64,000 nucleotides of DNA, from positions 11,724,908-11,788,907 of the forward strand of contig JAHRHZ010000223.1 in assembly GCA_024137785.1 (NCBI GenBank), read 5' to 3'. The position numbers and the translations under genes are program-made. This stretch comes from Ginglymostoma cirratum (taxonomy: Eukaryota). Of this stretch, positions 4,658 to 61,800 are shown one piece after another (the first letter of the stretch is position 1; each line of letters starts with the position of its first letter). The notes below the pieces were generated by a model. The model ran no database searches. It was not told where the DNA came from and saw nothing but the letters and a program-made list of their open reading frames with translations.

Positions 4658-5687
4658 TTGACACACCGTTGTCAGACATATTAATCAATTACACCAAGTA
4701 ACTGCGCATAAGTACATCAAAAGGCTTTTTTTCATGCAAACCTTTTTTTGTTGAAGCTTTGTTCTAAAATGTTGCCAATTGTGCTGGGTCATCAAAGATT
4801 TTATGCTGGGCAATATGCAAATAAGTAGAAATCTGGAAAATAATTCAATTTTGAAAACTGGCATGTCTTTGAGAATAATTTGCACCTGGTTTGCTGAGTG
4901 CACCAAAGTAAAAACTTTTGGCACATTTGCCATTATCAGCATCTCATATTACTAAATGTTACTTGTAAAGTGTATCGATTTCATTTTGACTTCTTTTTGT
5001 TTCCTTATTGCCCTTTTCAGTGAAAACTGGTACAACTTTCCAGCAACAGAAAACTCATTGTATCCAACAGCATGACACGTTAAAACCAAAACAATTATAC
5101 GTGGAAAGCACTGATGAAGGCACATATACTATCCATTGGTTTAGCTCACTTTATTGACTTGCGATGCAGAGTGACGCAAATAGCTCAATTTCTGCACTGG
5201 CTGAAGTGACCATGAAGGATTCTTCTTCACAACCTTTCACCTTGCCTGAGGTTTAGTGCCTCTCAGGTTAGACCATCACTGGTTGTCGCTCTCTAATGAG
5301 AGAGCGGTCCTATGGTCTCGTAAAACAATGACAACTTTACCTGATCAAAATGTACCCTGGCATCCTTTGCTTTTGAAGTAATTATGAATTTAACAGAAAA
5401 GTAATCAATGTAAATTAGACCTGACAAAAATAAATGCATTATTATCACATTATTTCATTCAATAATGGGCATAACTTCTGTAATACGATGTTTAATCATT
5501 TTTAAAATCAATTTAAAAATTTGACTTAAAGGTACCTAACAAATATGTAATATAAGTTAATGACAGTCTGAATTAAAATTCCAGTCATCTCACTAACAGA
5601 AGCAAGCTCGAAATCCATAAAGTAACATTATGGTCATCCTAAGGCTTAGACATCTCAAATTTACAAAAACAACCTGGAAGTCAAATG

Positions 5688-6962
5688 AGAGATAATAGAT
5701 ACTGCAGATGCTGGAGAATCCGAGATAACAAGGTGTGGACCTGGATGAACACAGCAGGCCAAGCAGCATCAGAGGAGCAGGAAAGCTTGACGTTTCGGGC
5801 CTAGACCCTTCCTCAGAAGTGGGGGAGGGGAAGAGGGTTCTGAAATAAATAGGGAGAGAGGGGGAGGCGGATAGAAGATGGATGGAGGAGAGGATAGGTG
5901 GAGAGGAGACAGACAAGTCAAAGAGGGGGGGACGGAGCCCGTAAAGGTGAGTGTAGGTGGGGAGGTAGGGAGGAGATAGGTCAGTCCAGGGAGGACGGAC
6001 AGGTCAAGAGGTGAGGTTAGTAGATAGGAGATAGGGGTGGGGCTTGAGGTGGGAGGAGGGGATAGGTGAGAGGAAGAACAGGTTAGGGAGGCAGGGACGA
6101 GCTGGGCTGGTTTTGGGATGTGGTTGGGGGAGGGGAGATTTTGAAGGTTGCGAAATCCACATTGATACCATTGAGCTGCAAGGTTCCCAGGCTGAATATG
6201 ATTTGCTGTTCCTGCAGCCTTCGGGTGGCATCACTGTGGCATTGCCGGAGGCCCAGGATGGACATGTCGTCCGAGGAATGGGAGGGGGAGTTGAAATGGT
6301 TCGCAACTGGGAGGTGCAGTTGTTTGTTGCGAACTGAGCGCAGGTGTTCTGCAAAGCGGTCCCCAAGCCTCCGCTTGGTTTCCCCAATGTAGAGGAGGCC
6401 ACAACAGGTACAGCGGATGCAGTATACCACATTGGCAGATGGGCAGGTGAACCTCTGCCTGATGTGGAAAGTCTTCTTGGGGCCTGGGATTGGGGTGAGG
6501 GAGGAGGTGTCGGGGCAGGTGTAACACTTCCTGCGGTTGCAGGGAAAAGTGCCGGGTGTGGTGGGGCTGGAGGGGAGTGTGGAGCGGACAAGAGAGTCAT
6601 GGAGAGAGTGATCCCTCCGGAAGGCAGACAAGGGTGTGGAGGGAAAAATATCTTTGGTGGTGGGGTCGGATTGCAGATGGCGGAAGTGTCGGAGGATGAT
6701 GCGTTGGATCCGGAGGTTGGTGGGGTGGTACGTGAGGACGAGGGGGATTCTTTTTTGGTTGTTATTGCGGGGACGGGGTGTGAGGGATGAGTTGCGGGAA
6801 ATGCGGGAGACACGGTCGAGGGCGTTCTTGACCACTGCGGGGGGGAAGTTGCGGTCCTTGAAGAATGAGGACATCTGAGATGTACGGGAGTGGAACGCCT
6901 CATCCTGGGAGCAGATGAGGCGGAGGCGAAGGAATTGGGAATAGGGAATGGCATCCTTGCAG
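5688..6962 (-). mobile_element. Penelope-like element, Neptune-type, 5'-truncated (GIY-YIG endonuclease plus 3' terminal region)
   Basis: ORF 6083-6874 has the Cys linker CNRRKCYTC and GIY-YIG motifs VVYCIRC...LYIGETKRRLGDRFAEH...GTLQLNGIN. 12-bp direct repeat GGAAGTCAAATG at 5676-5687 and 6963-6974. Confidence 0.92.
5786..5819 (-). ncRNA. Minimal type I hammerhead ribozyme motif in the Penelope terminal repeat
   Basis: Minus strand reads cuu-CUGAGGA-a-GGGU-cuag-GCCC-GAAA-C-GUC-aag: conserved core boxes, stem II, palindromic ACGU stem III, GUC cleavage triplet. Confidence 0.75.
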
Positions 6963-7234
6963 GGAAGTCAAATGGTCCCTTCACTCATTTGCTGCAGTGC
7001 TGTGTTGAGTGGAATACTGTAGTTCTGTCTTCAAAGAAATTAGGTCTTAGATAAGGGTCATGATTGTGTAGGGATGTATTTTTTTAAAATCCTGCATTGT
7101 ACAATCTAAAAAATCAGCATTTGATTTTGCCGCTGGACATAAATTTATACCAACATATATTGAAAGAGGGGAAGGTGATTATGTAGCAGTAATTTCACTG
7201 AACTGGAAATCCTGAACCTCAAGTTAATATTACA

Positions 7235-8815: not shown

Positions 8816-11800
8816 CAGTATATAAAGGAGCTATTAAGCTCGTCAAGTCTTCACTGGCTGAGTAAAATAACCACCCATTCTCATCTCACTTACAAGCACC
8901 CTGGTCTGTGGTTTATAGGTTACAGTGCTTCAAGTGCAGAACCAGATTCTTCTTAAGTGAGTTCAGGGTTTCCACGCCAACTAGCAAACTTAAATGCAAC
9001 TTCCAGAAATCCACCACCCTCTTAGTGAAAGCACTTTTTCTTCTGTGCCCTCTAATCCTTCTACCATTCATCTTAGTTTATTCCCCTGATAATTGACCTC
9101 TCTGCTCAGTGTAACAGGTCTTCCCTAGCCACGCTAGCCAAGTCTATCATTATTTTGTAGACCTCGGTTAATTCACTCCTCAGCCACCTCATTCTAAACA
9201 AAATAAACTTAGCCTGCTCAGTCTTTCCTCAAAGCTGCAATTTTCAAGCTGTGGCTATACACTTGTATACCTCCTCTGTTCTCTTTCTGGAACAACTATA
9301 TCCTTCCTGTAATGTGGTGACCAGAACTGTACATAAAACTGTAGCTGTGGCCTAACCAGTGTCTTATGTATTTCTAATATTACAGCCTTACTTTCATATT
9401 CAATACCTCATGCAGTAAAAGAAAACATCCCATATACCTTCTTTACCATTTAACTTACCCAACCAGTTGGCTTCAATGATCTCTGACATGCACTCAAAGG
9501 TCTCTCACTTCCTCTACCCCAACAATATCCTCAATTTATTGTGCATTCGCGTGCTTTGTTTGTCCTTCTGTAACTTCACACTTCTCTGGAGCGAGTTCTA
9601 TATAACACTTTACCACAAAGTCAACCAAACCATTGATATCATTCTGTAATCAACTGCCATCCTTTTCATTATCAATGACACAAACAATTTTTGCATCCTC
9701 TGCAAATTTCCCAATCATGCTTCCTGCAATTCTGTTGAAAACATTTATATCTACCACTAACAACAAGGGACCCAATGCTGAAGTCAGTGAAACATCACTG
9801 GAAACTGCTTTCCACTCACAAAGACATCTACTGATGTTACCCTTTGTTTCCTGTCTCTGAGCAAATTTTAGATTCAACTTGTTACACTCCTTACATTCCA
9901 TGGGCTTTAGGCTTTCTGACTAGTCTGTCATATGGTTTCTTATTATGTGCCTGACGAAAATCTATGTAGACAACATCCATTGCATTATGTTCATCGATCT
10001 ACCTTGTTACTTCCTCAAACAATTCAATCATGTTAATAAAAATAACGTTCTCTTAACAAAACCATGCTAAATATCCCTGATGAATCTATGCCTTTCCAAG
10101 TAACAGTTAATCCCAACTCTCAATATCTGCTCTAGCAATTTTCCCACCACTACCAAGCAAAGTCAAACTTACTGATCTACAATTATTTGGTTTATCCCTC
10201 ATATACCTTTTGAATAATGGTACAATTTTTGCAGACCCTCAATTCTCTAGTTCATGGCCGACATCTAGAGAGAATTGGAAAACGATCCTCTGAGTGTCCA
10301 TTCTTCTCTCCCTGTCTTTGACAATCTTGGATACTGTTCGACCAGCCTTATACTTCCCTTGCCATTTTGCTTATTTTGTCTAATATTTCACACTCTTCTT
10401 TAACTAAAATGTCTGCTTCATCCCTCTCCTTTTTGAAGACAGCAATGAAGTACTCATTAAGAAGCTTGCCGGTATCTACCGCATCCATGGAAAAGTTCTC
10501 ATGTACATTTCAGATAGGCTGAAACCTTTGCTTATTCATCCTTTAACTCTTAATGTAATTATAAAACATTTTAGAATTTCCTTAATTTCATCAATCAATT
10601 TTTTTTTTGCATCGCCTCTTTGCTTTCCCAATTTATTTTTTCCACTTCACCCAGGCCTTTCTATACTCATCTAGGCTTTGTAATTTTTCACTTTTTAGGG
10701 ATTATCACAAACTACATTTTTCCACTTTTTCCCCACATTGTATGTTTCTGGATAACCAGGGGACTCTAGATTTAGCAATAGCACCTTTTTGCTTTGTGGA
10801 ACATGTTTATATTGTCATAAAATCATAGAATCCCTACAGTGCGGATGCAAGCCATTCAGACCATCAAGTCCACACCGACCCACTGAAGAGCGTCCATCCA
10901 CAAACTCTCCCGCTACCCCCACCATCCCCGCAACCCTGCATTTGCCATGGCTAACCCACTTTACCAACACATCCTTGGACACAATATGGAAATTTAACAT
11001 TGCCAATCCACCTAACCTGGCAATAAAATCAGATGTTGCTGGAAAAGCTCAGTAGGTCTGGCAGCATCTGTGAAGACAAACCAGGGTTAATGTTTTGGGT
11101 CTAGTGACCGTTCCTCTTTGGACTGTGTGAGGAAACCAGAGCACCCAAGGGAAACCCATACAGACACAGGGAGAACATGCAAACTCTGTACAAACAGTTG
11201 CTCAAACATGGAATTGAACCCAGATCCCTAGCACTGTGAGGCAACAATGCTAACCACTGAGCCACCGTGCCACCTTGCCCCTCAGACTCTTACCTCTAAA
11301 TCCCTCTCAGTAATTTGCCATCGGCTGTGCTTCAAATAGCTGCAACCAGTCCAAATCTGCCAAATCACCTGAGACTCGTAAGACCTGTCTTCGCCCTGAG
11401 ATGCAGAACTGTGACTCCAGCTGGCACTCGTGCGCCGAACTCCAGACTTCAAGTTTATGCAACGAGTTACATTTTCTGCAGCTGTGTTCATTTGGTTTCA
11501 TGGAATCTCTAAAGTGTGGAAACAAGCCGTTTAGCCCAACAAGTCCACACCGACTCTGTGAGGAGCATCATACCCAGACTCACCCCCCTACCCTATCCCT
11601 GTAACCCTGCATTTCCCACGGCCAATCCACATGACTCTGCACATACCATAGGATGTGCACTCCACTTGAAAGAACTGACCTGCCATACTATAAATTTAAA
11701 AGCTCTGCATTATGATTAAAAAGTAGAAACCTTACCAGCATTTATCTGAACTGAACAACAGGAGGCTGAAAACCCCAGAAAGGAAGAAAAGAACACTTCT

Positions 11801-17530: not shown

Positions 17531-17866
17531 ATTAAAAACCTGTGACTTTTATCCTTATTTTAACAAAATTTTACTGATCACCTCTGTGGAAGTCATAACA
17601 GTATGGACTAAGGTTGCGTTTTGATGTTACTACTCAGAGACATGGCAAAATATTAAAGAATGTGAGATGGGAATGAAGGGAAAAAAAGGTGACAGAAGGA
17701 TAGTGGAGAATAGAATGAGAAAGGCAGAGATGACAAAGGAAAAGGAAGAAATGTTGGGGTATATTATGACAGAGATAAAAGGTACTGCAGATGCTGGAGA
17801 ATCCGAGATAACAAGCATGGGGCTGGACGAACACAGCAGGTCAAGCAGCATCATAGGAGCAGGAAA

Positions 17867-17902
17867 ACTTGACGTTTCGAGCCTAAACCCTTCATCAGAA
17901 AT
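17867..17902 (-). ncRNA. Minimal hammerhead ribozyme motif
   Basis: Minus strand: auuu-CUGAUGA-a-GGGU-uuag-GCUC-GAAA-C-GUC-aagu. Confidence 0.75.
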
Positions 17903-19178
17903 GGGGGAGGGGAAGAGGGTTCTGAAATAAATAGGGAGAGAGGGGGAGGCAGATAGAGGATGGATAGAGGAGAGGATAGGTGGAGAGGAGGCAGACAAGT
18001 CGAAGAGGCGGGGATGGAGCTGGTAAAGGTGAGTGTAGGTAGGGGGTTGGGGAGGAGATAGGTCAGTCCAGGGAGGACGGACAGGTCAAGGGGGCGGGAT
18101 GATGTTAGTAGATAGGAGATGGGGGTGTGGCTTGAGGTGAGAGGAAAAACAGGTTAGGGAGGTGGAGATGAGCTGGGCTGGTTTTGGGAAGCGGTTGGGG
18201 GAGGGGAGATTTTGAAGCTTGTGAAATCCACATTGATGCCATTGGGCTGCAGGGTTCCCAGGCTGAATATGATTTGCTGTTCCTGTAGCCTTCGGGTGGC
18301 ATCACTGTGGCATTGTAGGAGGTCCAGGATGGACATGTCATCTGAGGAATGGGAGGGGGAGTTGAAATGGTTCGCGACTGGGAGGTGCAGTTGTTTGTTG
18401 CGAACTGAACGCAGGTGTTCTGCAAAGCGGTCCCCAAGCCTCCGCTTGGTTTCCCCAATGTAGAGGAAGCCACAATGGGTACAGCGAATGCAGTATGCCA
18501 CATTGGCAGATGTGCAGGTGAACATCTGCTTGATGTGGAAAGTCTTCATGGGGCCTGGGATTGGGGTGAGGGAGGAGGTGTGGGGGCAGGTGTAGCACTT
18601 CCTGCGGTTACAGGGAAAAGTGCCGGGTGTGGTGGGGCTGGAGGGGAGTGTGGAGCGGACAAGGGAGTCGCGGAGGGAGTGGTCCCTCCGGAAGGCGGAT
18701 AAGGGTGGGGAGGGAAAAATGTCTTGGTGGTGGGGTCTGATTGCAGATGGCGGAAGTGTCGGAGGATGATGCGTTGGATCCGGAGGTTGGTAGGGTGGTA
18801 TGTGAGGACGAGGGGGCTTCTTTTTTGGTTATTATTGCGGGGACGGGGCGTGAGGGATGTGTTCCGGGAAATGCAGGAGACACGGTCAAGGGCGTTCTCG
18901 ACCACTGTGGGGGGGAAGTTGCGGTCCTTGAAGAATGAGGACATTTGAGATGTACGGGAGTGGAATGTCTCATCCTGGGAGCAGATGTGGCGGAGGCGAA
19001 GGAATTGGGAATAGGGGATGGCATTTTTGCTGGAGGGTGGGTGGGAGGAGGTGTATTCCAGGTAGCTGTGGGAGTCAGTGGGCTTGAAATGGACATCTGT
19101 TTCTAGGTGGTTGCCCGAGATGGAGACAGAGAAGTCCAGGAAGGAGAGAGAAGTGTTGGAGATGGTCCAGGTGAACTT

Positions 19179-19578
19179 NNNNNNNNNNNNNNNNNNNNNN
19201 NNNNNNNNNNNNNNNNNNNNNNNNNNNNNNNNNNNNNNNNNNNNNNNNNNNNNNNNNNNNNNNNNNNNNNNNNNNNNNNNNNNNNNNNNNNNNNNNNNNN
19301 NNNNNNNNNNNNNNNNNNNNNNNNNNNNNNNNNNNNNNNNNNNNNNNNNNNNNNNNNNNNNNNNNNNNNNNNNNNNNNNNNNNNNNNNNNNNNNNNNNNN
19401 NNNNNNNNNNNNNNNNNNNNNNNNNNNNNNNNNNNNNNNNNNNNNNNNNNNNNNNNNNNNNNNNNNNNNNNNNNNNNNNNNNNNNNNNNNNNNNNNNNNN
19501 NNNNNNNNNNNNNNNNNNNNNNNNNNNNNNNNNNNNNNNNNNNNNNNNNNNNNNNNNNNNNNNNNNNNNNNNNNNNNN
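19179..19578. other. Assembly gap (400 N)
   Basis: Run of n characters. Confidence 1.
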
Positions 19579-19830
19579 ACCTGTTTTTCCTCTCACCTCA
19601 AGCCACACCCCCATCTCCTATCTACTAACATCATCCCGCCCCCTTGACCTGTCCGTCCTCCCTGGACTGACCTATCTCCTCCCCAACCCCCTACCTACAC
19701 TCACCTTTACCAGCTCCATCCCCGCCTCTTCGACTTGTCTGCCTCCTCTCCACCTATCCTCTCCTCTATCCATCCTCTATCTGCCTCCCCCTCTCTCCCT
19801 ATTTATTTCAGAACCCTCTTCCCCTCCCCC

Positions 19831-19866
19831 ATTTCTGATGAAGGGTTTAGGCCCGAAACGTCAAGT
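19831..19866 (+). ncRNA. Minimal hammerhead ribozyme motif, fully canonical core
   Basis: auuu-CUGAUGA-a-GGGU-uuag-GCCC-GAAA-C-GUC-aagu. Stem I pairs auuu with aagu. Confidence 0.8.
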
Positions 19867-21179
19867 TTTCCTGCTCCTATGATGCTGCTTGACCCGGGGT
19901 ATATTATGACCTTCAGTTTTGCAGCTGAATTTGTAGATGGCGTGAAAAAAGCTAACTCTGATGACCCTCATGGTCTAATAGCCTTCTGCCACCTGAAGTC
20001 TTATTTTCCATGATAACTAGCCAGAAGGTGACCTCAACTGCTGACCAAATCCGTTTGCAAGCTCTAGGTATGCCCTAATGTAACCTCTTGGGATATACAC
20101 CTCAGGAGAAAGGCTACCCACCAAGTACAATGCACTCTAGGAGTAACAACACCATGGTTGCCATGCCTCCTGTTTGAATAATTACCATGCCAAGTTGAAC
20201 AGCAGCCAGGAAATCACATCCCACTATCTTTCGGAGAGCAGTCGGCCTAAGGTCAAAGATATGTAAACGGTTATCTTGCCTCAAATGCTAATATTCCAAG
20301 TGCTAGGCCTTGTCTGGGGACAGATGTAGCAGTGGTCCTATCGTGTGTGCCTACAGCAATGTGCTACTGATGGAAGAAGTCACACCTCAGGGGATGATGC
20401 AGTGAGTACACAGCAGCAACTCCTTGCCTTGGCTGGGCTCCATCTCCAGGTTAAAAAGACTGGTACAAGGTCTGACAACTCCTGATGAGTTGTTTGTTCT
20501 TTGTTTAAAATGGATTTATTTTATTTACAGGGTTTCTTGCAATTAATTGTTAGCAGTGGAATTTCTTTGATCACAAACAATTCCATTTTGGCTGGACAGG
20601 TCCTTTATCATTCAGCTTTACCACCCGCCAGGATGCATTTCTGGTGGGTAAAACCCCACAATAAACGTCCACAGTCTCATTACTTATTACCTCTATAATG
20701 TACCCTAGGGCACACATTCGTGTCACAGATACAGACGTTTCAATTCATTTTCAGTATTTATACTCAGTGCTTGAATACTAATAAGGCAGTGAAAAGGCAT
20801 TCCACTTCATTCTACTTACTAATTCTCCTTTGCCATGTTGTTAGTTCTAACACTTTACTTCCCTCCTCCTCAGTTCTTTATTTATTCCAACGGGCTACTC
20901 TGAAATCGGCTTTAAAACACCGTCCCTGTTCAATTCAAAAAAACAAAACAGAAAATTCTAAAGATAAAATGAACAACAGGTCAGTTTGAAAGAGGAAGAT
21001 GATTACTGGGCAATATTTAATGCAGGCAAGAGAATTTCACCCACTGGCTAAAGACCTGGCATTAGCCCTGCACCTCCTCCTTTAGGGAACGGTTGTTGGC
21101 ACTAAGTTTTTCTTTAGTAATTAAGCAATCAGGGCAGGACCTTCCCTGAGAGAAAAGCTGACATTTCCCACTCAACTGG

Positions 21180-24912: not shown

Positions 24913-25482
24913 TGTTACACTTCATCCACCACATCCTTCTGCTTGACCAGGGCCTCCCAAGGTAAGGACTTGAAACTGGAGCTATACAAGTATGCTTTGA
25001 TTACATAAAAAGATCTCAAAAGCATTAGATGGTAATAAGGGAATCGCAAGGAATATTGGCATTGACATCAACACTCAAATCCCATGAAAGGTGTCATTTA
25101 AACTTTAGGCCAAATATTGGAGCACTATTAATTATGACTGCTTGATAAATTATTCTTTTAAGGTAGAAAATATTTTAGCTTTGTCATGCAGGCATTGAAG
25201 AAACTAACAATCAGAGCATTGGGTTGGGCTCAAAGGTGCTTTGATCCCAAGCTACCTCCTTCCTTGATCTAAGGTCTATCAAGGGGAGAACATGAGGGCA
25301 AGTCTGCAGTACAAACGAGAAAGAGAAAATTGAATGAATCTATATAGTTTCCTGGGCTTGCTGTAAAACATTTCATGAAAAATGGATGCTGATGTTCTTC
25401 AATCTTGTAGGATGTCTCCTTAATATGTTGACTTTCTCATGATGATGGTTAAACTTTGTAGACGTTATCCTCAAACTTAGCT

Positions 25483-26653
25483 TGCAGCTTTGAATACACA
25501 ATATTTATCCCCAAAGATACATTGTTGTGGAGGCTTTCCAGGGCTACAATGTGAGTAATATCAAAGACATTAAAGTCGAGTTGCAGAATCTACTCGGGCT
25601 AGTGGCCTAAGACTAATGTCTCCTCCAGTGAGTACTTCTCGGAAGTAACTTTTTATTCTGTTATTAGTTTTAGCATTTGTCAAGTTTAAATTAATTTGCA
25701 TTCTCAAGCAAACTCAATTCTTTGATAATTTTCTTGATGTTTTTATATTGAGCTATATTTCAAAAGGAAAACTGACTAATTCAGTAGACCTACAATATAC
25801 ATGAACTCAAGGAGTTCTAAAGAAGAGTCATATTGAACTGGAAACATTATCTCTGTTCCTCTTTGCACAAAGACTGCCACACCTGCTGGGTTTCTCCACC
25901 ATTTCTGTTTCTGACAACAAAATAGTCCAGGGAAAAAAATTCTAACGTTTGGTAATACAACAATCATTGACCACAGTGAAGTGTTTTGTTTCAGTGGAGA
26001 ATAATTTATTTTCAGGGAATAACAATCCATTCTAGCAGAAAACTGGGAACATAGTATTGATATTTTTTGACTTTAACTCAGTCAGAAAAATCCTTGAATG
26101 AGGCTGCTCTCCTGTAAAGCTAACTACTTGTTTGTCCTGTGTACTGGTATTGTCATGTGTAGTCTTTTAACAGAACATAAGAATGCCTTGAATTGAATGC
26201 CTACTAGCTCTTCCTACTATTTTGGTCATAAACGTTATTAAAGGTGAGTTATAGTCTTTTCCTCAGTGAAAGTCCACATTAAAATTATGGTTAGGTATTA
26301 AGTTGTAGCAAAATATTAATTTAACTGAATGAATCTGGTAACACATTGATTGATATTTAGCACCATGTTAGTGCCTTTCACTGTTGATGCACATGGACAC
26401 AAAATAAGTTTCAGTTGTTCGTTAGCTCGCCGAGCCAGTTGTTCTGTGGTGTGCAGACATTTCATTACCCTCCTAGGTAACATCATCAGTATGACGTCTA
26501 ATCGAAGCGTTGGTGTTCTGCTTCCTTCCAGATTTATATGATCCTCTGGTCTGGTGATCTTGTCGCTTCCGGTTCTGTTGTTTTAGCAGCGGTCTGTATA
26601 CGGGGTCTATTTCAATGTGCTCGTTAATGGAGTCCTGTTTTCAGAACCAGGCT
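25483..26653. repeat. Left arm of a long inverted repeat
   Basis: Reverse complement of 27963-29261. Identical mirrored ORFs (26350-26541 + and 28076-28267 -) show the pairing. Confidence 0.95.
26452..26492 (-). ncRNA. Hammerhead ribozyme motif (Poseidon-type Penelope terminal repeat), partly decayed
   Basis: Minus strand: CUGAUGA-u-GUUACC-uaggag-GGUAAU-GAAA-U-GUC-ugc. Confidence 0.6.
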
Positions 26654-28210
26654 TGAACAACTCCCGCTTCCACTGCCTCCCCAGTATACCCAAACATGGA
26701 ATACCACTCAGACCAATAGTCTCCTTACCAGGCACATCTACACACAAGCTAACGGGAGAATTACAACGGAGACGCAAAGACCTGATTAGCAGATCCACAC
26801 TGAATCCATTCAGACCAAGAATTTCTTGCATAGCTCAAGGGCACAATGAGGATGAAATCATGATCTCCTTCAATGTTACTGCACTATTTAGGTCCTTTGA
26901 CATAATGTTAGCCAAAGAGACATTAGCCACACTACTGGATGGACGAGGAGCACCGACCCTGAACACCGGCAACAACATCAGCAAGGACAGCTTACTGAAA
27001 CAGCTAGATTTATGCCTTACAACATATTTCATTTTCAACCGATAGATATACAAACAGATCAATGGCACACTAATGGGATCACTTATCTCAGGTCTCATAG
27101 CAGAAGCAGTGATGCAGAGATTGGAACACACAGTCCTTCCTATAATCCAACTGAAACTGTGGGTAAGATACGTGGATTACACGTTTGTAATAATCAAATG
27201 CACAAGGGTAGAAGAAACCCACCAACTTGTCAACAACAACTTTGCAAACATAAATGTCACTAGAGAGGAAGAAAACAACAAACAGCTCCCGTTTTTGACT
27301 TAATGTTAGAGAAACTGACTAACAGCGAATTCTGGACCTGAGTATACAGGAAGGCTACACATACGGACCAAATCCTTAACTTCAATAGCAGCAACCCAGC
27401 ATATACAAACAGAGCTGCATCAAGACACTACTTAAATGAGCTGCATCACACTGTAATATCCCAGAACTCCAGAGAATGGAAGAGGAACACCTACACAACA
27501 TCTTCACCAATAATAGATATCCAAGAAGTTTTGTCTGCAGATGCCTACACTACAAAAGACAGTCAGATGGCACAGTACAACAGAAGAAACTAGCAACACT
27601 ATCTTGCATCAAAAATATATCAGAAATGGCGACCTGGCTCCTAAGACTGCAAAAGATCATGATTGCACACAAACCTGCAGCAACATTGTGCCGAATGTTA
27701 TCAAAGACTAAAGATCCAATACCGACAATAAACAAGACCAATGGTATATACAGAGTACCATGCAGTGAATGCAATAAACATTACATTGGACAAACAAGGA
27801 GGAAACTGACAATGAGGATACATGAACATCAGCTAGCAGCTAAAAGACACGACCAATATTTACTTGTCTCAATACAAACAGACAATGAGGGCCATTAGTT
27901 TGACTGGGACAAAATGTCTATACTGGGACAAGTGAACACCAGACATGCGAGGGAATTTCGGGAAGCCTGGCTCTCAACACGGAACTCCATTAACAAACAC
28001 ATTGAAATAGACCCCATATACAGACTGCTGCTAAAACAACAGAACCGGAAGCGACAAGACCACCAGACCAGAGGATCATATAAATCTGGAAGGAAGCAGA
28101 ACACCAACGCTTCGATTAGACGTCGTACTGATGATGTTACCTAGGAGGGTAATGAAATGTCTGCACACCACAGAACAACTGGCTCGGCGAGCTAACGAGC
28201 AACTGAAACT
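26654..28210 (+). mobile_element. Penelope-like element, Poseidon/Penelope group; RT plus GIY-YIG pseudogene
   Basis: GIPLRPIVS, ISFNVTALF, NGTLMGSLISGLIAEAVMQRLE, WVRYVDYTF, QLPFL, VYRKATHTDQIL, GIYRVPCSECNKHYIGQTRRKL..RIHEH, AREFREAW. Several stops and frameshifts. Confidence 0.93.
28125..28165 (+). ncRNA. Hammerhead ribozyme motif (Poseidon-type), partly decayed
   Basis: gua-CUGAUGA-u-GUUACC-uaggag-GGUAAU-GAAA-U-GUC-ugc. Confidence 0.6.
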
Positions 28211-28682
28211 TATTTTGTGTCCATGTGCATCAACAGTGAAAGGCACTAACATGGTGCTAAATATCAATCAATGTGTTACCAGATTCATTCAGTTAAATTA
28301 ATATTTTGCTACAACTTAATACCTAACCATAATTTTAATGTGGACTTTCACTGAGGAAAAGACTATAACTCACCTTTAATAACGTTTATGACCAAAATAG
28401 TAGGAAGAGCTAGTAGGCATTCAATTCAAGGCATTCTTATGTTCTGTTAAAAGACTACACATGACAATACCAGTACACAGGACAAACAAGTAGTTAGCTT
28501 TACAGGAGAGCAGTCTCGTGCAAGGATTTTTCTGTCTGAGTTAATGTCAAAAAATGTCAATACTATGTTCCCAGCTTTCTGCTAGAATGGACTGCTTTTT
28601 TCCTGAAAATAAATTATTCTCCACTGAAACAAAACACTTCACTGTGGTCAATGATTGTTGTACTACCAAGCCTTCGAATTTC

Positions 28683-28818
28683 CCCAGAACTGAGGAAGGG
28701 TCACCGGACCCGAAACATTAACTCTGTGTTTTCCTTCTGCTGCCAGACCTGCTGAGCTTTTCCAGCAACTTTGTTTTTGTTCCTGACTTCCAGCATCCAC
28801 AGTTCTTTCAGTTTTTGC
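28683..28818 (+). mobile_element. Short non-autonomous element beginning with a hammerhead motif
   Basis: CTGAGGA-a-GGGTC-accg-GACCC-GAAA-cattaac followed by the gctgccagacctgctgagcttttccagca body. Absent from the paired left arm. Candidate TSD ttcgaatttc / ttagaatttc. Confidence 0.8.
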
Positions 28819-29749
28819 TTAGAATTTCTTCCCTGGACTATTTTGTCAGAAATGGTGGAGAAACCCAGCAGGTGTGGCAGTATTTGTGGAAAGAGGAACG
28901 GAGATAATGTTTCCAATCCAATATGACTCTTCTTTAGAATTCCTTGAGTTCGTATATATTGTAGGTCTACTGAATTAGTCAGTTTTCCTTTTGAAATATA
29001 ACTCAATATAAAAGCATCAAGAAAATTATCAAAGAATTGAATTTACTTGAGAATGCAAATTTAACAAATGCTAAAACTAATAACACAATAAAAAGTTAAT
29101 TCCTAGAAGTACTCATTGGAAGTGACATTAGTCTTAGGCCACTGGTCCAAGCAGATTCTGCAACTCAACTTTAATGTCTTTGATATTACTCACATTGTAG
29201 CCCTGGAAAGCCTCCACCACAATGTATCCCCAGGGATAAATATTGTGCATTCAAGGCTGCACATTAATGAACAACTGCATCTACAGTCTGAGCTACAAAT
29301 TTTCGGTCACACCACAAAATAGGTTTTCTGCGTCTGTACCCTCAGAAAATCTAGAGCATAGATTGTCTTTGCCATCAACAATGATAAACAGGCAATGGGA
29401 ACTGCTGCAATATTGCAACAACTTTGCTTCTGACTAAGAGTCTATAAGTTTATTTGCCAGATTTCCACTTCATTTTGGACCTATCATGAATACTCCACAT
29501 GTAATGGTCATTCAATTTTCTTATGGAGGTTTGAATTCAAGGCAGATGAATGTGATCTGAGCATCATTTTCAATGACATATTATTTCTAATGCTGTAATG
29601 GGTCCTTACTTGCAAGTGGCATTTATCCTACTTCATGCCATCTCTACCTTACCTCTTTTAGTCTATCTCACATGCGTAATGTTATGGTAATTGTATTGTT
29701 CACATTCAGGCGTATTGATTGATAATGTATCTTGAGAACATATAAAAAG

Positions 29750-45310: not shown

Positions 45311-48289
45311 GTATAAATCAGTTAGCAATGTGTTTAAACGTCCTGTTCTCAATTAGTCTGGAGAGGATTTCTCTTTTTTTCCTCGTCTCTCCCTCTTTGT
45401 TCAATGTGTCAAGGCTTCAGTGAATTACATGTCACCGTCACTGGTTTAGGCTGAAAGCAGTTACTGAGAAGCAAGTTAAATCTTTCAGCTCCATTGTTTA
45501 CACTTTCCTGGGACGCCAGAACTTGCCGAAGCGGGGGACTCACTGTATGAGCGCAGGGAAGAGTGCCAATGTTATTGAAACATTTGGGGATGGGGGCGTG
45601 TAATTGTTCCTTGGATCAGTTACGAACTCGCTATCGGCTGGATGGTGGCGAAGATACCATTGTTTTATCCATATATAAATAGTCACAGAACGGTTCCGCG
45701 ATTATCCTGAGTTCAAAACAAAGATTGTTTTGTAAGACCATCCCCACTTGATTCTCCTTAGGGTCCTGATACAGAATCTTAGCGAGTAGAACTCAACAAT
45801 TTGCAAGCAAAAAAAAATGAAGATTTGGATGCTTCTGTTTAAGCAGAGCGAATAAACTTATTCTAACGATTTGGTTTATTTTGACTTGTTGAAACCTTAA
45901 TTTGTAAGGTGAGGTGTAAAAAGATGCCATGGTAGAAACTTTAAACCACCTTTTAAAAGCATTTCGGCGTTTATTTCAACTGCGTTTGCCAGAAATGGCG
46001 ATATTTTAAAGCTTTGTTATGATGTAACTCTTCCACCTTTAGTTCATATTGTCTGTAAGTTTTAAATGCTAGAATGGGATCAATAAAATCCTGCCCCTTG
46101 TGTATACCGTCAAAAAATTAACTGCAATTATAAACTAACAGGGTGCTGGCGAATTTTGTTGACTGGAATAGACAAGGACAGGAGAGTCCGTGTTTACGCG
46201 TAAAACTAAGTTCTGGGTTACGGTGACAGGAGTGCATTCGTGAACCAGGGAGAGACAGGGGACCAGAGACTGTCCGTTAGACCTGGCCTAACAGTGACAA
46301 AGAGAGGAGTGTGAAGCTGAATCTCACGCTATAAGAATGGATAGTGTTTTTGTTTTGTTTTGGCAGGTTTATCTGTGATTGTTTTTAGTATGTGGTTTGT
46401 TTATGATTGCTATCAAAGAATAATACCCACTGGTGCACCGTCAACCTGCAAGTGATGAATAAACTTGAAGAATAAAACCCGAAGGCAAATTACCTTGGTG
46501 TGCTTTTCAGAAAGTTAGAGCCAGGTTTGAAAACGGTGCCAAATTCGGCATATCCTTTCGATCGAATTGCTGGTTTTAGAGTGTGGAAGGTCCCAAATTT
46601 ATTTTCCACTTGTGAAAATTTTAACTAGCCCCGCACTTGAAGTCAGCCACACGTGAACTATGTTGCCCGGCTCACTATTGAGCCGGACTGACAAGACAGA
46701 GAGGTAATGCGATTTTGCAGACGCTTACTTACTCAGCCTTTATGGAACGGGGGGAATTCAGACCACACTGCGCTGTACTCCACAGTCTTCAACCACTATG
46801 TTAACCAGGCGTGGAAACAATTGAGCTGCCGTCCTTTATAACTTGCAGTGGTTGGGGTTACACTGTTGCGCGGTGGTGGTGTCATAACATCTCTCAACAG
46901 GTTGCTTAGAAAATATCGATACTGTTGGTGAGATTAAAATAATAAGATTGCCGCACAAGGCTGGGGAGGGAGAATCCATGGAGTGAATTTGAGACAGAAA
47001 TACATAGATTCCTGATTAGTGAGGGGATCAAGGGTTATAGAGAGATGGCAAGAGAGTGGAGCTGGGAAGCATATCCTCCATGCTGGAATAGAGGTGGAGA
47101 TTCAATCGGCCGAATGGTCTAAATTCTGCTCCTATTTCTAATGGATTCCATGAGTTGGGTCAAAAGAGGAGGCCGTTCGGACCTTGGTGCCTGCTGCTGT
47201 CAAGCTATCAGAGTATGGCTCATCCATTCATCCAACCCAGCTCAGTTCCAGCAGCTGCAACTCTTTGGAAGAGGAGGAAAGATATTGATTCCTACTCTCC
47301 TTTGCCTAAAAATGCGTTCACCTGATTTTCCCACGTCCACAATTCCCCCTTTCCCCGCTCCCGACTGACTCCTGATGTCCTCGCCAGAGGAAAGAGTTTC
47401 TCTGTATCTACTCTCTGGGTAATGAAAGCAAAGTAGTGGTGGATGTTGGAGATCATAAATAAAAACAGAAAGTGTTGGAGATACTCAGCAGGTCTGGGAG
47501 CATCACTGGAGAGAAAAATTTATCTCAACTTCGTGCCAGACCTGCCAAGTTTTTCTGGCACTTTCTGTTTTCTTTCTAGCCTGTGGAGTCTTTGTCACAT
47601 TAGCAACACCTCAGTGATGTGGTCTTATCAAGGCTTATAGGAAAGGACAGGAAAGTGAAAGTGAGGAGTTGGATCAGCAATGATCCTGTCGAACCAAAAA
47701 GAAAGAAATTGCTGGAGAAACTTATCAGGTCTGGCAGCATCTGTGGGGAGAAAGCAAAGTTAACATTTAGTGTCCTTCATCAGACGTAGTAGTAGCTAGG
47801 AAACGGTCGTATATATGCTGAAGACAGGAATGTGGATGATTGAGGAGTGACAGCATACCTAGAGAGCAAGCCCAGGGAGAGAAAAAGACAGGCAAAGGCG
47901 TAGATAATGGTATGTCATGGAAGAAGACAGGCTGATAAAGGGGACCTTAAATAAGTGAAATGGCAACACATGGTGGCAAAGCCTATTGAATGGCGGAGCA
48001 GGATTGAGGGGCCGAACGGTCAACTATTCCTATTTCTTGTGGTGTTAGGTCACCTGGTCAACAGTCTAACGACTGTGGAACATAAGCCTAGTGCATGCAA
48101 GTCTCTGCAATCCTCAGCCCCGCTATCATCCCAATATATTTGTGCTCTACCTCCCTGGAAGATCCAACCATCTTTACTGACATGGGCAAATGTAACAAAC
48201 TGCTCACAAAGACGTGGGACTCAAACCAGAGGCAGGGGCACTCGCTGCACCACAAGAGCCCTTACAGCATGTTGCTGATTTGCACAATG

Positions 48290-48601: not shown

Positions 48602-49704
48602 CTATGCAACCATTTCAAAAAGGGGCAACTGCTAAGGCTCCATGGATTTCAAATGGGTTAAGACGCCACGTGGATCCTTTAAAGAGACTCGATCTCTGAC
48701 CTGGACAAACAGCAGGTCCGGAGGACATGGTGATGCAGGAGGCATACCTGCGAGAGTTTTACCTTTTTAAAAACAAAATCACAACCTTAAGAACAAATTG
48801 CCTGGCGTCGTAATCCCCTGACAATAAAGAGGATAAAGTCGAGTCGTAACTCCTTTTTTGGCAAATATCCTAATCAGAAACTGTCGAGTGTAACATCAGG
48901 CAGATTTGTTGAGACTTTTATGTTGAGTTTGGAGAGGACGTGATTTATAGATATTATTTTCGGCGATTTTCCTTTTGATTAGTTAGATTAAAATTAGAAT
49001 TAGAATTAGAATTCAAAATTAAGTGAATATTTAAATCTGAAATTCGTGTATCACTCTCCCACATTGCAATCTGGAGCTGTTATTAATTTTATTCAAACAA
49101 AGCTTATTATGGAATCTATAAGCCGCTAGCTCTTCTTGTGAACAATGAATACAGTACAGGGGCCGCAGAGAGATTACAATGGTTTCCCACTTTGCAAAAA
49201 CTTTGTACTGAGCAGGGTGCGCATCTCGGATCTTCGCTCTGCAACATCACAACTGCAGGCTTTAAATGCTGGGTCTAATTTTTCATATGATACAGTGTGC
49301 ACGCTGTGGGAAGGGTGTAACTTCTGACTGACCACAGTTTTTCATCGCATGGCTGTGCTTTTCTAGACTTCTGTTTTTAGAATGTTGCAGCAGTTTTGTG
49401 CACTGGTTCGCACAACGTGGTCGCTAAGACAAAAGCCCAAGATTGCAGATGCTGGAAATCCGAAATTAAAGCAGGAAGTGCTGAAGAAACTCAGCAGTTC
49501 TGGCTGCATCTGTGGAGAGCAAAGGAGCCAGCGTTTCTCCTGTGTCTTATTTGGAACCCGCAGCAGGACGGTCATTCGGCCCACTGTATCTCTGCCAACA
49601 CTTGAAAGAATAGTCCCATTAGTCCTATATAGCTGGTCTATCCCTATAGCCTTGCATTTTCCATTCCATTTCATTCCCTGGGAAGGCAGGTCTGACCTGT
49701 GAAG

Positions 49705-50137: not shown

Positions 50138-51296
50138 ACCTTAAATACAATTCATTTCCGAAATTCACTATTGGATCTGTTTTCACCGCCCTTGCAGATT
50201 CTAATCGATTTAAAGAAAGGAAGTTCACCTCCCGTCCGCTTTATATATGTTATTGATTCAGTCATGATCGCCGGCCTGGGCAGCATGTATCATCCAGTGG
50301 ACAGCGCATTAACAGTCAACCACATTGCTTGTGCATCTGAAGTCAAATGGAGGCCAGGCCAGAGAAGGAGTGCAGATTTCCTTCCCTAATTAACATGAGT
50401 GAACCAGATGGGTTTTGACAATCTCCCGATTTTCACCATCCTGCTAGCTTTTACTCTACTGTTATTATTGAATTCAAAAATCCACCCTGATGGGATTCCA
50501 ACTCATGTCTCCAGAACATTAAGCTGGACCTCTGGATTACCAGTTTAAACCTTTACTAGATCTTAGTTAAATTGCAGGACAATGAAAGGTCACAAACTGC
50601 TAAACGGGTGGCATTAAACTGTTTTTGTTCTCGTTTTCTGTCTGCTCAAGGCCGCCAGGCAGTTGTAAAGGCAGAGACAAAAAACAACTGCAGATGGTGG
50701 AATCCAAAGTAGACAAACAGGAGGCTGGAAGAACACAGCAAGCCAGGCAGCATCTGGAGGAAAGGAGTAGTCAATGTTTCAGGTATAACCCTTCTTATAA
50801 AGGCAGAGCTGCCCTGCCCGAAAACAGCTTTTTGTGGAAGTTAGATTGTTTTAACAAGGCTGTGAGGGTTCAGGTGGAGCTTTTGCCTCAAGATGGGAGG
50901 GTAGGGGTTGCAAAAGACTCCGCGCATACTCCTTGCAGCAAACTGCACAGAAGCAGTCGGAGGAAGCAATATTCCTCCTTTCACCATTAGGTTTTCCAGC
51001 GTTAGTGCAGAAACCAGAATAATCCCTTCATTCAGCCCCATCTCTCTGGGAAGTGATATTCCTCCTGCAATTTTTGTTTCACTCTTGGCTAACTTACAAC
51101 CTCAGAATCTTGCAACTGTCCGGTTCGCTCAGATCTCCCCCTGCCTAGTATTGGTTACCTCTAGGCAAAATGCCTTCCCATCAGTGGGCCATAGACATCA
51201 CAGTGATTTTGCCCTTTCCCTTCACACGCCCGACCTCAAGTAGAAAGCAACGCTTTCATGATGTCCTTCTCACAGCTAAACCAATAGCCAGAAACA

Positions 51297-51440
51297 CTTG
51301 TTCTGAAGAAGAGTCCCTGAAGCCGAAACATTCGCAACTGTTTCTCTGTCCATAGAAGCTGCCAGACCCGCTGAGTTTCTCCAACCTATTTCTGTGTTTG
51401 TTTCAGATTTCCAGCATCTGCAGTTCTTGGCTTTATATTG
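51297..51440 (+). mobile_element. Short HHR-type element, degenerate
   Basis: ttctgaagaagagtc...ccgaaacatt...gctgccagacccgctgagtttctcca...ttccagcatctgcag. Confidence 0.6.
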
Positions 51441-56601: not shown

Positions 56602-56990
56602 ATGGCATCCGAGTTGGCAATCAGCAACGCCGACCTACCCAACAGTCCCCTTGCGATGGAATATGTTAATGACTTCGATCTGATGAAATTCGAAGTCAAA
56701 AAGGAGCCGGTGGACTCGGAAGGCAATCCGGGCAGTCACTGCAACCGCATCGGGGGCTCGCTGTCTTCTACGCCAATGAGCACCCCGTGCAGTTCGGTGC
56801 CTCCGTCTCCCAGCTTCAGCGCCCCGAGCCCCGGAGAGCAGAAGGCGGCGCATCTGGAAGACTTTTACTGGATGACCAACTACCAGCAGCTGAACCCGGA
56901 CGCCCTGAGCTTCACGCCGGAGGATGCGGTGGAGGCCCTGATCAGCAGCGCCCATCAGCAGATGCAAGCCGGCTTCGAGAGTTACCGAAG

Positions 56991-57026
<36 letters not shown>

Positions 57027-57573
57027 TGCCCCGGCGGCTGGAGCGGGCTTGGCCGGCGATGAGATGTCTCCAGCCGGCGCTGTGGTGGCTCATCACCACC
57101 ACCATCATCATCACCACCACCACCAGGGGCACCAGCACCCAGCGGCAGGAGGAGGAGTGGGCACTGCCGTGGGCAATGCCGGAGCGAGCACCGGAGGCAT
57201 GCACCCGCACCTGCGGGCCGGCGATGACCGCTTCTCGGATGACCAGCTGGTCACCATGTCGGTGAGGGAGCTGAACCGGCAGCTCCGGGGCGTCAGCAAG
57301 GAGGAGGTGATCCGGCTGAAGCAGAAGCGGCGGACCCTGAAGAACCGCGGCTACGCTCAGTCCTGCCGCTTCAAGCGGGTGCAGCAGAGGCACATGCTGG
57401 AAAGCGAGAAGTCGCAGCTCCAGCAGCAGGTCGAACACTTAAAACAGGAGATCAGCAGGCTGGTGCGGGAGAGGGACGCCTACAAGGAGAAGTACGAGAA
57501 ACTGGTGACCAGCGGCTTCAGAGAAACGGGATCGTCCAGTGACAATCCTTCGTCTCCGGAATTCTTCATGTGA
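56602..57573 (+). CDS. MAF: Transcription factor c-Maf (large Maf bZIP), 323 aa, single-exon form
   Basis: N-terminus MASELA...[22 protein letters not shown]; S/T/P-rich activation domain; His tract; extended homology region and b[58 protein letters not shown]; c-Maf-type C-terminus [13 protein letters not shown]. Confidence 0.97.
56992..57024 (+). repeat. Pure (CAG)11 coding repeat (poly-Gln) in MAF
   Basis: Eleven uninterrupted CAG codons. Confidence 0.95.
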
Positions 57574-58866: not shown

Positions 58867-61800
58867 CGTGTTTTATATATGATATACATTATAGTAAGCA
58901 AATGAAAATAAAATGCAAAAAATACATGTTTAGAACTTTAATGCATTTTAAAAACAATTATGCATGGAAAAAATGGCCACTGCCTGCACAGTGCAAAATG
59001 AACAGAAGTTTTGCTGTTTTACACAATTTTTAGAATCAACATTTTTAGATAGCCAACGTAACCGAATCAGTTTTTACAAGATTCATCTTAGGTGTTGGTG
59101 ATATTTTGTTTGATATTTGTTAGAAATGTCATTTTCTAGGAAGGCTTCCTCTGTGTCTGCGTGTGTGTTTCAGTTCAAATTTAACAAAGACGAGCCGTAA
59201 TAAATTTTGAAATTTGACAGGAGTTTAATACTTTTTTTAAAACTTAAAGTTGTGCAAAGCTCTCAAAAATTATCGGGAATTCTTGGCTAGCCACATGTGA
59301 TTTTAACTCACGTGTGTTGTCTTCCAATTCCCCGCCCTATTTCCTTCAACATATTTTAGAAAATGTTGTTGATTATTTTTAACACGTGTAATGTTGGGAG
59401 GGAGGGGGGCGTTGGAAATATATGCGTAGTTGCTGGGTTTTGTAGATAGGATAAAACTTGCGAAGCACCTGAAAATGGTTACTGCGGCTGTTATTGGGGA
59501 CATTATATTTTACAGGCTTCACACCCGGCTCTCTGTGTAATGCGTTCAGCAATCCGCCAGATCAAAGTTTCTCAGTCACTGGCCAATCGGGTCTATTTTC
59601 ATCCACAGTATTAATTTGAATGCCAAAATTCTATTTGCTCAAGAGTTGAACGTATGGGCAAAACACCAGTTCCTAGTGATAAGTCTAGATGGTTCAAAAT
59701 AGCAACTAAAAGGCGAATACCTTTGTGGGGTTTTTTTAGCTCTAATTTCACAAAAAAATGTTTTTAAAATACTGTTGGCTAATTAACTGGGAAACCCTTC
59801 TTTTTCTACTGTTGAAGAAATTTGCTGTTACACACGTGTGCATTTCCAGAGAAGAAATTCCTCGTCATTACAGGGTCCAACAGGACTGTACTCATTCTGA
59901 ACTGCCAACGGGGCGCAATAGCATTCTAGCAATTCTACTGAAGTCATTCTTTTTATTTCCACCCCAAAGGTTCAAATGCAAATAATCGGATCTGTTAGAA
60001 AGTGCAGTTTAAAATATCAAAGGCAGAAATAAATCCAGGCTCCCTTTTGTGAATTTTCAGGAAAATGATCATTGACAAAAGTCGGAGAGCAGACACATTA
60101 AACTTAGTTTTACATCAGTTCTTCTCTCGATTAATAATCATTTTGCACTATAAGCCCTAAGCAATAATGTATTTTAATATATGATCCTTAATGATCATCT
60201 GTCAGACCGCTGAGTACAAGCTTCGTAATCTCTAGTCATCTTCTGCACTGAAAACGTACCAGATCTAAGCGACTATCTTCACCCAATTATTGGACAGATC
60301 CAGTGTTTAGGAGGCCGAATATTACAGTGATAAAAGAGGAAAATGTCCTTTGAATGTTCCCACAAATCATTGGTGGGATGTATCTGTGAAACGTTACTGC
60401 GAGGAAGAAATAAATAGTCAAAAAGAAAACGCCATTCAGTTTTGTTCAGTTAAGACCAGGTTGATACGATTTCCCCTTGCATAACAGGCCGCTATCGATC
60501 GTTCGGAAGGTCACCAATTGCAAACACAATCGTTTCAGGTTAAAGGGTGGTAAAGGTTAAATCGAGACAAATATATCAATCAGGCCCTCTAATTCGAAAT
60601 GAAAAGCAGTTTAACTCGTTGGGGTCCGCTGCACCAATCTTACAGCAGAAAATCCCTGGACCTAGCGTAGAAAGGGTATTCTAATGAATGAGGTACTGGC
60701 TTGCTCGGTTTTGACGATTCATTTTGTAAATCGTCGACAGTGTTGTGATAGCTCGAGTTTGGAGTGATGCACAACTTCAAAGGGTTCACTGGCGCGTGTT
60801 TTTACAACTCGGCCTAGTTTGACCCGTTCACAAATGTGCGCTGCCTGTTTGTTTGTCACCAGGCTTTGGGGGCCTGTCACGTTTTGAATCATGAAAGCTT
60901 ATTGATGTGAAACAATACGTAACCCCTGATCAGATGTGTCGTGTGATGTCTGGCTATAACATCCACGATAGGAAATGATGTTTTGCATGACTGTCAGAAG
61001 ACCAGCCATTTCAACAAAAAGCGAGCAGCCAGCGTGCAATAGCGACAAAGTCTTCCAGACGGGGTTGACACGAGAGAGGGGTTGACTGGGGCTCGGGGAG
61101 TGGCGGTGGGAAACTAACACACAGCGGTCCTGTCCCCCGCTTCCTTCAATATCTGAAATGAGAGTTTTTGTTATGCCACCCATTTAATCTTGCAACTGGT
61201 GCCACTCACGGATACGCGACAGAATCTTTTGTAATCTGTTGTAATCAATTGACCCCAGATGAGTTACTCTCTATTTTTAATCTAGTATTAGACCCGCTAC
61301 ATTTCTGTAGCTGGACACGAGCAACTTGCAAGGGACACTTCTTCAAAAGTGTAGGGATCAATCGCTGTTCTAGCGCTACAGATACTTCACAGAGTTTCCC
61401 TTTAGACATTCCAGCCCCCTGCAAATGTCAAACCTCGAGAGAGAGGGGGATTTTAAAGAAAAGTGCGACAGAAAATAAGACTCTGGAGATTATTTCAGTC
61501 CCACGTGTTCGGCTTGGTGGTATTTGTGCGGATTAATCGAGGTGAATTAGGGGCATTGTTCAGTTATTCGTTACACAGGATTGTCGAGAATTTTTTTTGT
61601 TTTGCCAAGGCAGTGACTCTGTCCTTTCAGTGGAGCTTTGATTTCCATCAGGGATAAGGCAGGGGGAGAATAAAACGGCTGAGCTTTTGGTTAAAAGTGA
61701 AGGTGGCGTGATGTGACTGAAATCTGAGAGCTCCCAGCTTTAGGCTGTTAAAGTGCAGCGAACAGTGAAACTGCGTGGAGAAGCACAAGTGTCAGAGAGA

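Follow-up and report, generated by a model that had tools for sequence, protein, structure and literature searches.

A decayed Penelope-like element (PLE) in the shark Ginglymostoma cirratum holds, between its 3' pseudo-long terminal repeat (pLTR) and its tail, an inverted copy of the host DNA that lies on its left. The locus is part of a stretch of 64,000 nucleotides (the window; positions 11,724,908 to 11,788,907 of contig JAHRHZ010000223.1, assembly GCA_024137785.1), and all observations reported here come from this one locus of one assembly. A previous reading of the letters without database searches (the sequence-only reading) had recognised a palindrome built around a PLE. The unit of insertion is, however, not the palindrome but 26412-29312, and its parts stand in the order target-site duplication (TSD), inverted pLTR, body, pLTR, inverted flank copy, tail, TSD. 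The plan of the insertion is canonical, and the inverted left TSD and flank occupy a place between the pLTR and the tail. It is very probable that synthesis switched template by way of the inverted pLTRs and so copied the left flank into the 3' end of the element.

Self-comparison of the window and alignment of the arms confirm the extent of the palindrome and most of its proposed composition. When 25483-26654 is globally aligned with 27963-29261 in reverse complement, 1153 columns contain 58 mismatches (95.0% identity; 42 transitions and 16 transversions), and a further 165 gap columns are mostly due to one right-arm insertion of 135 bp, 28683-28817, which is missing from the left arm and had been overlooked. 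The inverted arms reach 1.2-1.3 kb and enclose a spacer of 1308 bp (26655-27962), which is, as had been read, a decayed reverse transcriptase (RT)/GIY-YIG body. The share of each arm assigned to Penelope sequence, some 240 bp, comes to 243 bp (26412-26654 and 27963-28205), and the outer part is indeed AT-rich, with a GC content of 34% versus 43% window-wide. Among 169 PLE-related proteins, no credible match to the outer arm was found; a 36-residue match to one of them in the right outer arm (31% identity, E 5e-4) was judged to be chance. Local alignment carries the arms further, to 25451/29303, an extension likewise attributed to chance as 68 of 1974 tiles, and 196 of 1480 anchored tiles, score as high; the stretch near 29303 is the Penelope tail.

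The boundaries of the insertion are given by a TSD. The 14 nt abutting the left inverted end of the element, CACAAAATAAGTTT (26398-26411), recur at 29313-29326 with 13 of 14 positions matching, a score equalled by one of 1182 other 100-nt tiles and by three of 3000 shuffles. Three other insertions in the window, taken for calibration, have duplications of 11-15 bp that match at 15/15, 12/12 and 10/11 positions. The sequence-only reading had seen no TSD around the whole unit, which holds for the outer ends of the palindrome, where the best direct repeat is 5 nt, and fails for the real unit. Since the TSD bounds 26412-29312, the left outer arm is native host DNA. Neither of the hypothetical empty-site joins restored a repeat known elsewhere in the window.

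On the right, protein homology in the pLTR frame stops at 28202-28205, adjoining the inverted TSD at 28206. The element is not finished there. The 51 nt that separate the right arm from the right TSD are more than filler: they carry, at 29265-29277, the final 13 nt of the pLTR once more, with one mismatch, and then a further 35 bp, such that 1.06 kb of inverted host flank parts the 3' terminal repeat from its tail. With up to one mismatch allowed, this 13-mer has four sites in the window, namely both pLTR ends, 29265-29277 and an unrelated site at 61573. The pLTR frame ends ARRANEQL, and the stretch beyond the right arm reads NEQLHLQSELQIF, compared with ARRTEPQQRAPELQIF near the start of a shark PLE protein, P0004, against whose N-terminus 20 of 2336 tiles score as high as the tail frame. 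This N-terminal motif is held by two of the 169 PLE-related proteins (P0004 and P0029). The segment 29278-29312 thus reads as a Penelope tail, and its length of 35 bp fits the 30-40 bp, at one end only, described in PMC8557442; a 31-bp tail at one inverted pLTR that lengthens the open reading frame (ORF) start from 12 to 22 residues is described in PMC3846280. A similar asymmetry is seen in the window's PLE copy at 17771-19895, where about 68 nt of extra 3' sequence occur at the primary end only.

Four in-frame stops and several frame changes interrupt the body of the central element. Its RT piece has 19 relatives among 464 candidates, of which the best named belong to Chiloscyllium punctatum and Stegostoma tigrinum (60-64% identity), and it is 57-66% identical to the top full-coverage matches, which carry RVT_1; the decayed piece itself has no Pfam match, and the first homologue search returned none at E 1e-20 among 68 candidates. 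The endonuclease (EN) piece matches 883 proteins at E 1e-10 or better and Pfam GIY-YIG at E 0.003, short of the curated cut-off. The element shows the marks of endonuclease-bearing (EN+) PLEs: RT followed by a C-terminal GIY-YIG in one ORF, albeit a decayed one, an inverted 5'-truncated copy (243 bp) with a one-sided tail (35 bp) and a short TSD (14 bp), and, by pattern match, a pLTR with a minimal hammerhead motif. According to PMC8557442, Penelope/Poseidon elements have a CCHH endonuclease motif and an RT-EN linker that lacks a CX2-5CxxC zinc finger. Here the endonuclease shows CxxC and downstream histidines, which were counted as CCHH, and the zinc finger was not found in the linker, although both of the window's other long PLE copies have it. 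The central element therefore fits the Penelope/Poseidon type, a clade name that rests on domain architecture. The two other copies are provisionally called Neptune-type on the CX2-5CxxC motif alone, which Nematis shares.

The reading frame across the inner junction of the inversion (26654/26655) gives EPGLNN, compared with (K/E)PESNN in shark relatives, which is suggestive of imperfect pairing. As a separate observation, the 5' truncation point of the body (26655-26663) starts with GAACAACT, resembling the tail-less 3' end of the element (28197-28205 and 29269-29277), and GAACAACTG occurs also 24 nt earlier in the pLTR, at 28173-28181. The likeness of GAACAACT and GAACAACTG is possibly due to chance, but could bear on the points at which reverse transcription starts and stops.

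Hammerhead-like cores were found by pattern search at 28128 (+) and 26489 (-), each with a 7-pair helix II, so that the two motifs proposed on opposite strands are upheld as pattern matches. The pattern is permissive, with 17 matches in the window, among which these two have the longest helix II. Both pLTR motifs contain GAAAT; the corresponding sequence in the two long Neptune-type copies is GAAAC. Rfam gave no match at the gathering score, and RNA folding of four hammerhead-like stretches lent no support (z -0.06 to -1.29), the minimum-energy folds not being hammerheads.

How the flank came to lie inside the element can be reconstructed from this anatomy. A Penelope/Poseidon-type element would have inserted at an AT-rich site through a 14-bp staggered cut and, as the order of parts shows, taken the usual form of TSD, inverted tail-less 3' copy, truncated body, pLTR, tail and TSD. 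A strand made across the right pLTR would then have changed template to its inverted homologue, 1.3 kb distant. Because the host copy, which includes the inverted TSD, starts exactly at the end of the 243-bp homology, this first switch is hidden within the inverted pLTRs, as expected of template switching at inverted repeats, where one junction is concealed by the repeats. Synthesis would have overrun the homology by 929 nt, taking in the left TSD and 915 nt more of the left flank, before returning to the element where flank and pLTR share 6 nt, AGCTAA, from where the terminal 13 nt of the pLTR would have been completed, followed by the tail and the right TSD. This hexamer is present in both the flank (minus strand of 25477-25482) and the pLTR (28190-28195), in the register fixed by the junction, and is found at 28 of 127,200 positions. 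The TSD identifies the copied flank as the left one and the destination as the 3' terminal repeat of the element, ahead of the tail. Most likely the flank copy arose from synthesis jumping between the two inverted ends of the element and is one case of a known copying error. At a later time a hammerhead-bearing short repeat would have entered the right arm and, much later, one arm would have converted about 490 bp of the other.

Several points weigh against this account. The present junction reads CATTAA, which differs from AGCTAA at three of six positions, so that a further mutation or inexact joining has to be assumed for the microhomology. Because the windows for the TSD comparison were picked once the match had been seen by eye, the associated p-values are post hoc. 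Support for the tail comes from one protein, P0004, of another subfamily (62% identical in RT); comparison with the second N-terminus, P0029, gave no significance, 502 of 2336 tiles scoring as high, and a search for further N-termini returned, among 56 candidates, only the query P0004. The window contains no second copy of the central element's family. Finally, the divergence of the inner segment has an interval of 3-19%, and so the timing is poorly constrained. Independently of these points, the return junction at 29262-29269 is a perfect 8-bp palindrome, CATTAATG, and it may be speculated that quasi-palindrome correction could account for the departure from the shared hexamer.

With regard to timing, the proportion of non-CpG mismatches is 38 of 586 in the host arms and 5 of 57 in the inner PLE segment that escaped conversion (p = 0.57). 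The body is changed at 15 of 113 conserved residues, some of these possibly being subfamily differences, which by rule of thumb corresponds to about 6% per base. As the arm and inner-segment divergences are alike and the decay of the body is comparable, copy and insertion are of roughly equal age, the error being wide. The sequence-only reading had suggested that the insertion also copied some 0.9 kb of DNA: about 0.93 kb of flank was copied in inverted orientation, and copying during insertion is compatible with the divergences, though not more than that. We incline to the view that the copy was made while the insertion was being completed, by fold-back of second-strand synthesis. Such a fold-back fits both the divergences and the behaviour of the protein in PMC11167929, which is described as cutting and extending both strands and as starting at two sites that bound the tail. 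A considerable but smaller likelihood attaches to repair, at an early stage, of a break or a fork close to where pLTR and tail meet; this route would yield an identical product, the distal end then keeping 13-16 nt of homology to the donor.

The flank copy could alternatively have passed through RNA, with a leftward transcript running from the inverted pLTR into the flank and being reverse-transcribed at the element's own pLTR/tail cut, primed by the 6 nt. The Anolis protein is reported to nick its own pLTR in vitro (PMC11167929), and the 13-nt repeat that bounds the host copy is of the size of local TSDs. However, source and target are here a single locus, whereas an RNA route ought to strike any copy of the family, and we consider this explanation improbable.

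The differences between the arms are unevenly spread. From the outer to the inner segments the mismatches number 46/602, 0/308, 3/179 and 9/64, and the tract 26104-26590 has three mismatches in 487 columns with a perfect run of 314 bp, nearly all of it in host DNA. No run of 314 arose in 200,000 permutations, and the tract differs from its two neighbouring segments with Fisher p 1.5e-9 and 3.8e-7, an excess of identity of the kind that marks gene conversion. Conversion between arms is well known in palindromes, and the tract probably records such an event of recent date. It could also be that selection keeps the hairpin or the identical tract, through double-stranded RNA or small RNAs, or as an enhancer lying 27 kb upstream of a Maf gene; the perfect identity is almost wholly in host DNA, and a Maf bZIP ORF is present at 56602-57570. 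The long double-stranded RNA hairpin that the sequence-only reading had envisaged for a transcript across the palindrome is hypothetical. Nevertheless, conversion between nearby inverted arms accounts for one tract without selection, and the tract spans both host and element DNA. Selection is judged an improbable explanation; the structure most likely has no function and represents a neutral scar.

The 135-bp insertion in the right arm is flanked by an 11-bp duplication of which 10 of 11 positions are identical. An nhmmer profile, built from seven copies outside the palindrome and matching 21 sites in the window, recognises the older repeat in each of the arms (E 2e-10 and 3.7e-10); it also detects the 135-bp insertion (E 2e-20) and, at E 5e-14 to 2e-11, the 3' termini of the Neptune-type copies. 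As the profile matches these termini, both short repeats are PLE-derived, from another kind than the central element. The older decayed repeat that the sequence-only reading had placed in the arms is present there, and its kinship with a Neptune-type 3' terminus can now be added.

Transduction of 3' sequence, or membership of a long terminal repeat, had been put forward as another source of the outer arm, which would have come with the RNA of a source locus, making both arms cDNA. Host DNA inside Penelope copies has been reported, the spacers of Pen1_Av measuring 0.9-1.5 kb (PMC3846280). Even so, this origin is very unlikely and the suggestion is not supported: the real TSD lies inside the left arm and none better than the 5-nt match lies outside the arms, the tail is distal to the host copy, and the captured DNA matches the adjacent left flank, whereas transduction calls for DNA of distant origin beyond the 3' end of the element, with a single TSD around the whole unit. 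In addition, reverse transcription of Anolis Poseidon is described as beginning internally at the tail and not at the RNA 3' end (PMC11167929). An assembly artefact, whether of the whole duplication or of the near-identical tract, is equally unlikely. Although the assembly has a 400-N gap at 19179-19578, PLE repeats are described as hard to assemble (PMC8557442), and gap filling or polishing could homogenise a tract, the arms are 7.6% divergent outside the tract, their differences show a transition bias and include indels, one arm alone has an insertion bounded by its own TSD, and three mismatches persist within the tract. An artefact behind the whole structure is very unlikely, and one confined to the near-identical tract is unlikely in a lesser degree. 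That the right arm is native and that the left arm was copied from the downstream flank by a fold-back at the 3' junction is very unlikely, since the 7-nt match AAACTTA (25473-25479 and 28206-28212) that it could draw on is equalled by 296 of 1182 tiles and the tail and 14-bp duplication within 29265-29326 are left unexplained.

Table 1. Features of the palindromic PLE locus and examples of the related short repeats, in window coordinates
Feature	Position	Strand	Remarks
Native host DNA, left outer arm, template of the inverted copy	25483-26411	+	929 bp; terminates in left TSD; aligns to reverse complement of 28206-29261
AGCTAA, in register with pLTR 28190-28195; putative return-switch microhomology	25477-25482	-	
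Old short repeat, kin of Neptune-type PLE 3' terminus; older than the duplication	25820-25912	+	nhmmer
Second copy of the old short repeat	28850-28934	-	
Near-identical inter-arm tract, partner 28027-28513	26104-26590	.	3 mismatches in 487 columns, 314 bp perfect
TSD, left copy, 14 bp, 21% GC	26398-26411	+	13/14 identical to 29313-29326
Inverted 5' copy of element 3' end (GIY-YIG ORF end and pLTR, hammerhead-like motif), without tail	26412-26654	-	243 bp
Decayed 5'-truncated body fitting the Penelope/Poseidon type (RT, thumb, GIY-YIG endonuclease)	26655-27962	+	4 in-frame stops, several frame changes
ORF end and 3' pLTR, hammerhead-like core at 28128; overlaps ORF N-terminal reading frame	27963-28205	+	
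Inverted copy of left TSD and left flank (25483-26411), within 3' terminal repeat	28206-29261	-	Alignment
Later 135-bp insertion, hammerhead-like core at 28690, right arm only	28683-28817	+	11-bp duplication 28672-28682/28818-28828
Return junction; 29265-29277 is the last 13 nt of the pLTR again	29262-29277	+	12/13 to either arm's version
Segment reading as Penelope tail, 35 bp, extends ORF N-terminal frame (ELQIF)	29278-29312	+	Compare shark PLE protein P0004
TSD, right copy	29313-29326	+	
Short-repeat family, examples	11012-11119, 47424-47518, 47680-47783, 49429-49549, 50672-50798, 51303-51434		nhmmer profile

Other PLEs occur in the window. A Neptune-type copy on the minus strand at 17756-19910 has 316-bp inverted arms (one mismatch), a perfect 15-bp TSD and about 68 nt extra at its primary 3' end, and encloses the 400-N gap. 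Another on the minus strand, at 5676-6974, is 5'-truncated with a perfect 12-bp TSD; it shares 91% identity with the copy at 17.8-19.0 kb, and an inverted copy was not seen in it. An isolated 135-bp Neptune-type 3' terminus at 38829-38963 matches the end of the 5.7-kb copy with 93% identity, and no TSD was found for it (best score 5). Several of the short repeats akin to this terminus, at the 21 sites in the window, have decayed hammerhead-like cores, and they may be truncated short insertions or monomeric retrozymes. The Maf ORF on the plus strand at 56602-57573, some 27 kb downstream of the palindrome, encodes in one frame a bZIP transcription factor of the large Maf type (Pfam Maf_N and bZIP_Maf), which from its N-terminus we take to be c-Maf.

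The component parts of this structure are known, and their combination at a PLE is apparently unreported. No PLE with an inverted copy of its own flank was found in the literature, although most subscription journals and the older papers on Penelope structure lay outside the scope of that search, which makes it weak evidence of absence. Fold-back synthesis at breaks has reportedly been observed in yeast. In the class of rearrangement termed DUP-TRP/INV-DUP, the second junction is formed by microhomology or end joining. The first switch of such rearrangements lies, as here, inside a pair of inverted repeats (PMC11293582), but they are described as triplications in human disease at a scale of kilobases to megabases, whereas the shark locus has a 0.93-kb templated insertion with a step back of 13-16 nt. 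The canonical EN+ PLEs, such as Pen2a_Av, are depicted in PMC3846280 and PMC8557442 with the same TSD, inverted 5' copy, one-sided 30-40 bp tail that lengthens the ORF start and hammerhead-like pLTR; only the shark locus has 1.06 kb of inverted flank between pLTR and tail. Pen1_Av likewise has 0.9-1.5 kb of unique host DNA near the 3' end of a Penelope copy. Its spacer, however, precedes the 3' pLTR, its pLTRs are mostly direct and PMC3846280 gives no source for the spacer, in contrast to the shark copy, which follows the pLTR, precedes the tail and is the element's own left flank in inverted orientation.

Parallels also exist in other retroelements. In L1, hundreds of base pairs of target DNA are inverted with a TSD-like overlap kept, and these inversions and inverted duplications are attributed to self-annealing and fold-back synthesis at broken ends (bioRxiv 10.1101/2024.12.14.628481). 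The cases described there are somatic or from cell lines and are primed by about 2 bp of flank microhomology, whereas the shark copy is a fixed-looking germline one that would have been primed by a 243-bp inverted repeat of the element itself and lies inside the element. In the snap-back described for R2 (PMC11371274), nascent DNA similarly primes on its own cDNA or on nearby target before the junction closes. It takes place at the 5' junction of engineered insertions and, unlike the shark locus, without a pre-existing inverted terminal repeat.

The value of the shark locus lies in the fact that all of its junctions can be read: the TSD, the tail-less inverted end, the tailed primary end and a flank copy entered through the inverted pLTR. 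Together these make up a signature that can be counted, consisting of an inverted pLTR pair, homology that runs on into one flank, and then the tail and a second TSD. They also carry a warning for annotation, as the boundaries and TSDs of PLEs may sit a kilobase away from the apparent end of a repeat. If the signature is common, PLEs are a source of host palindromes and of captured host DNA; if it is rare, the locus records a single repair accident. It is possible, though we hold it only tentatively, that the copy was made during integration by a recurrent route, in which the inverted pLTR lets second-strand synthesis fold back and thereby draws host DNA inside, upstream of the tail at which reverse transcription begins. 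The integration steps of PLEs that follow first-strand synthesis are left unvalidated in PMC11167929. Were this route true, such copies would be fossil records of a PLE integration intermediate, in which two ends are primed at two start sites and long stretches are single-stranded. Kilobase host palindromes would then be seeded across PLE-rich genomes, and host DNA placed inside a mobilisable unit would provide a mechanism for capture of the kind seen in Pen1_Av.

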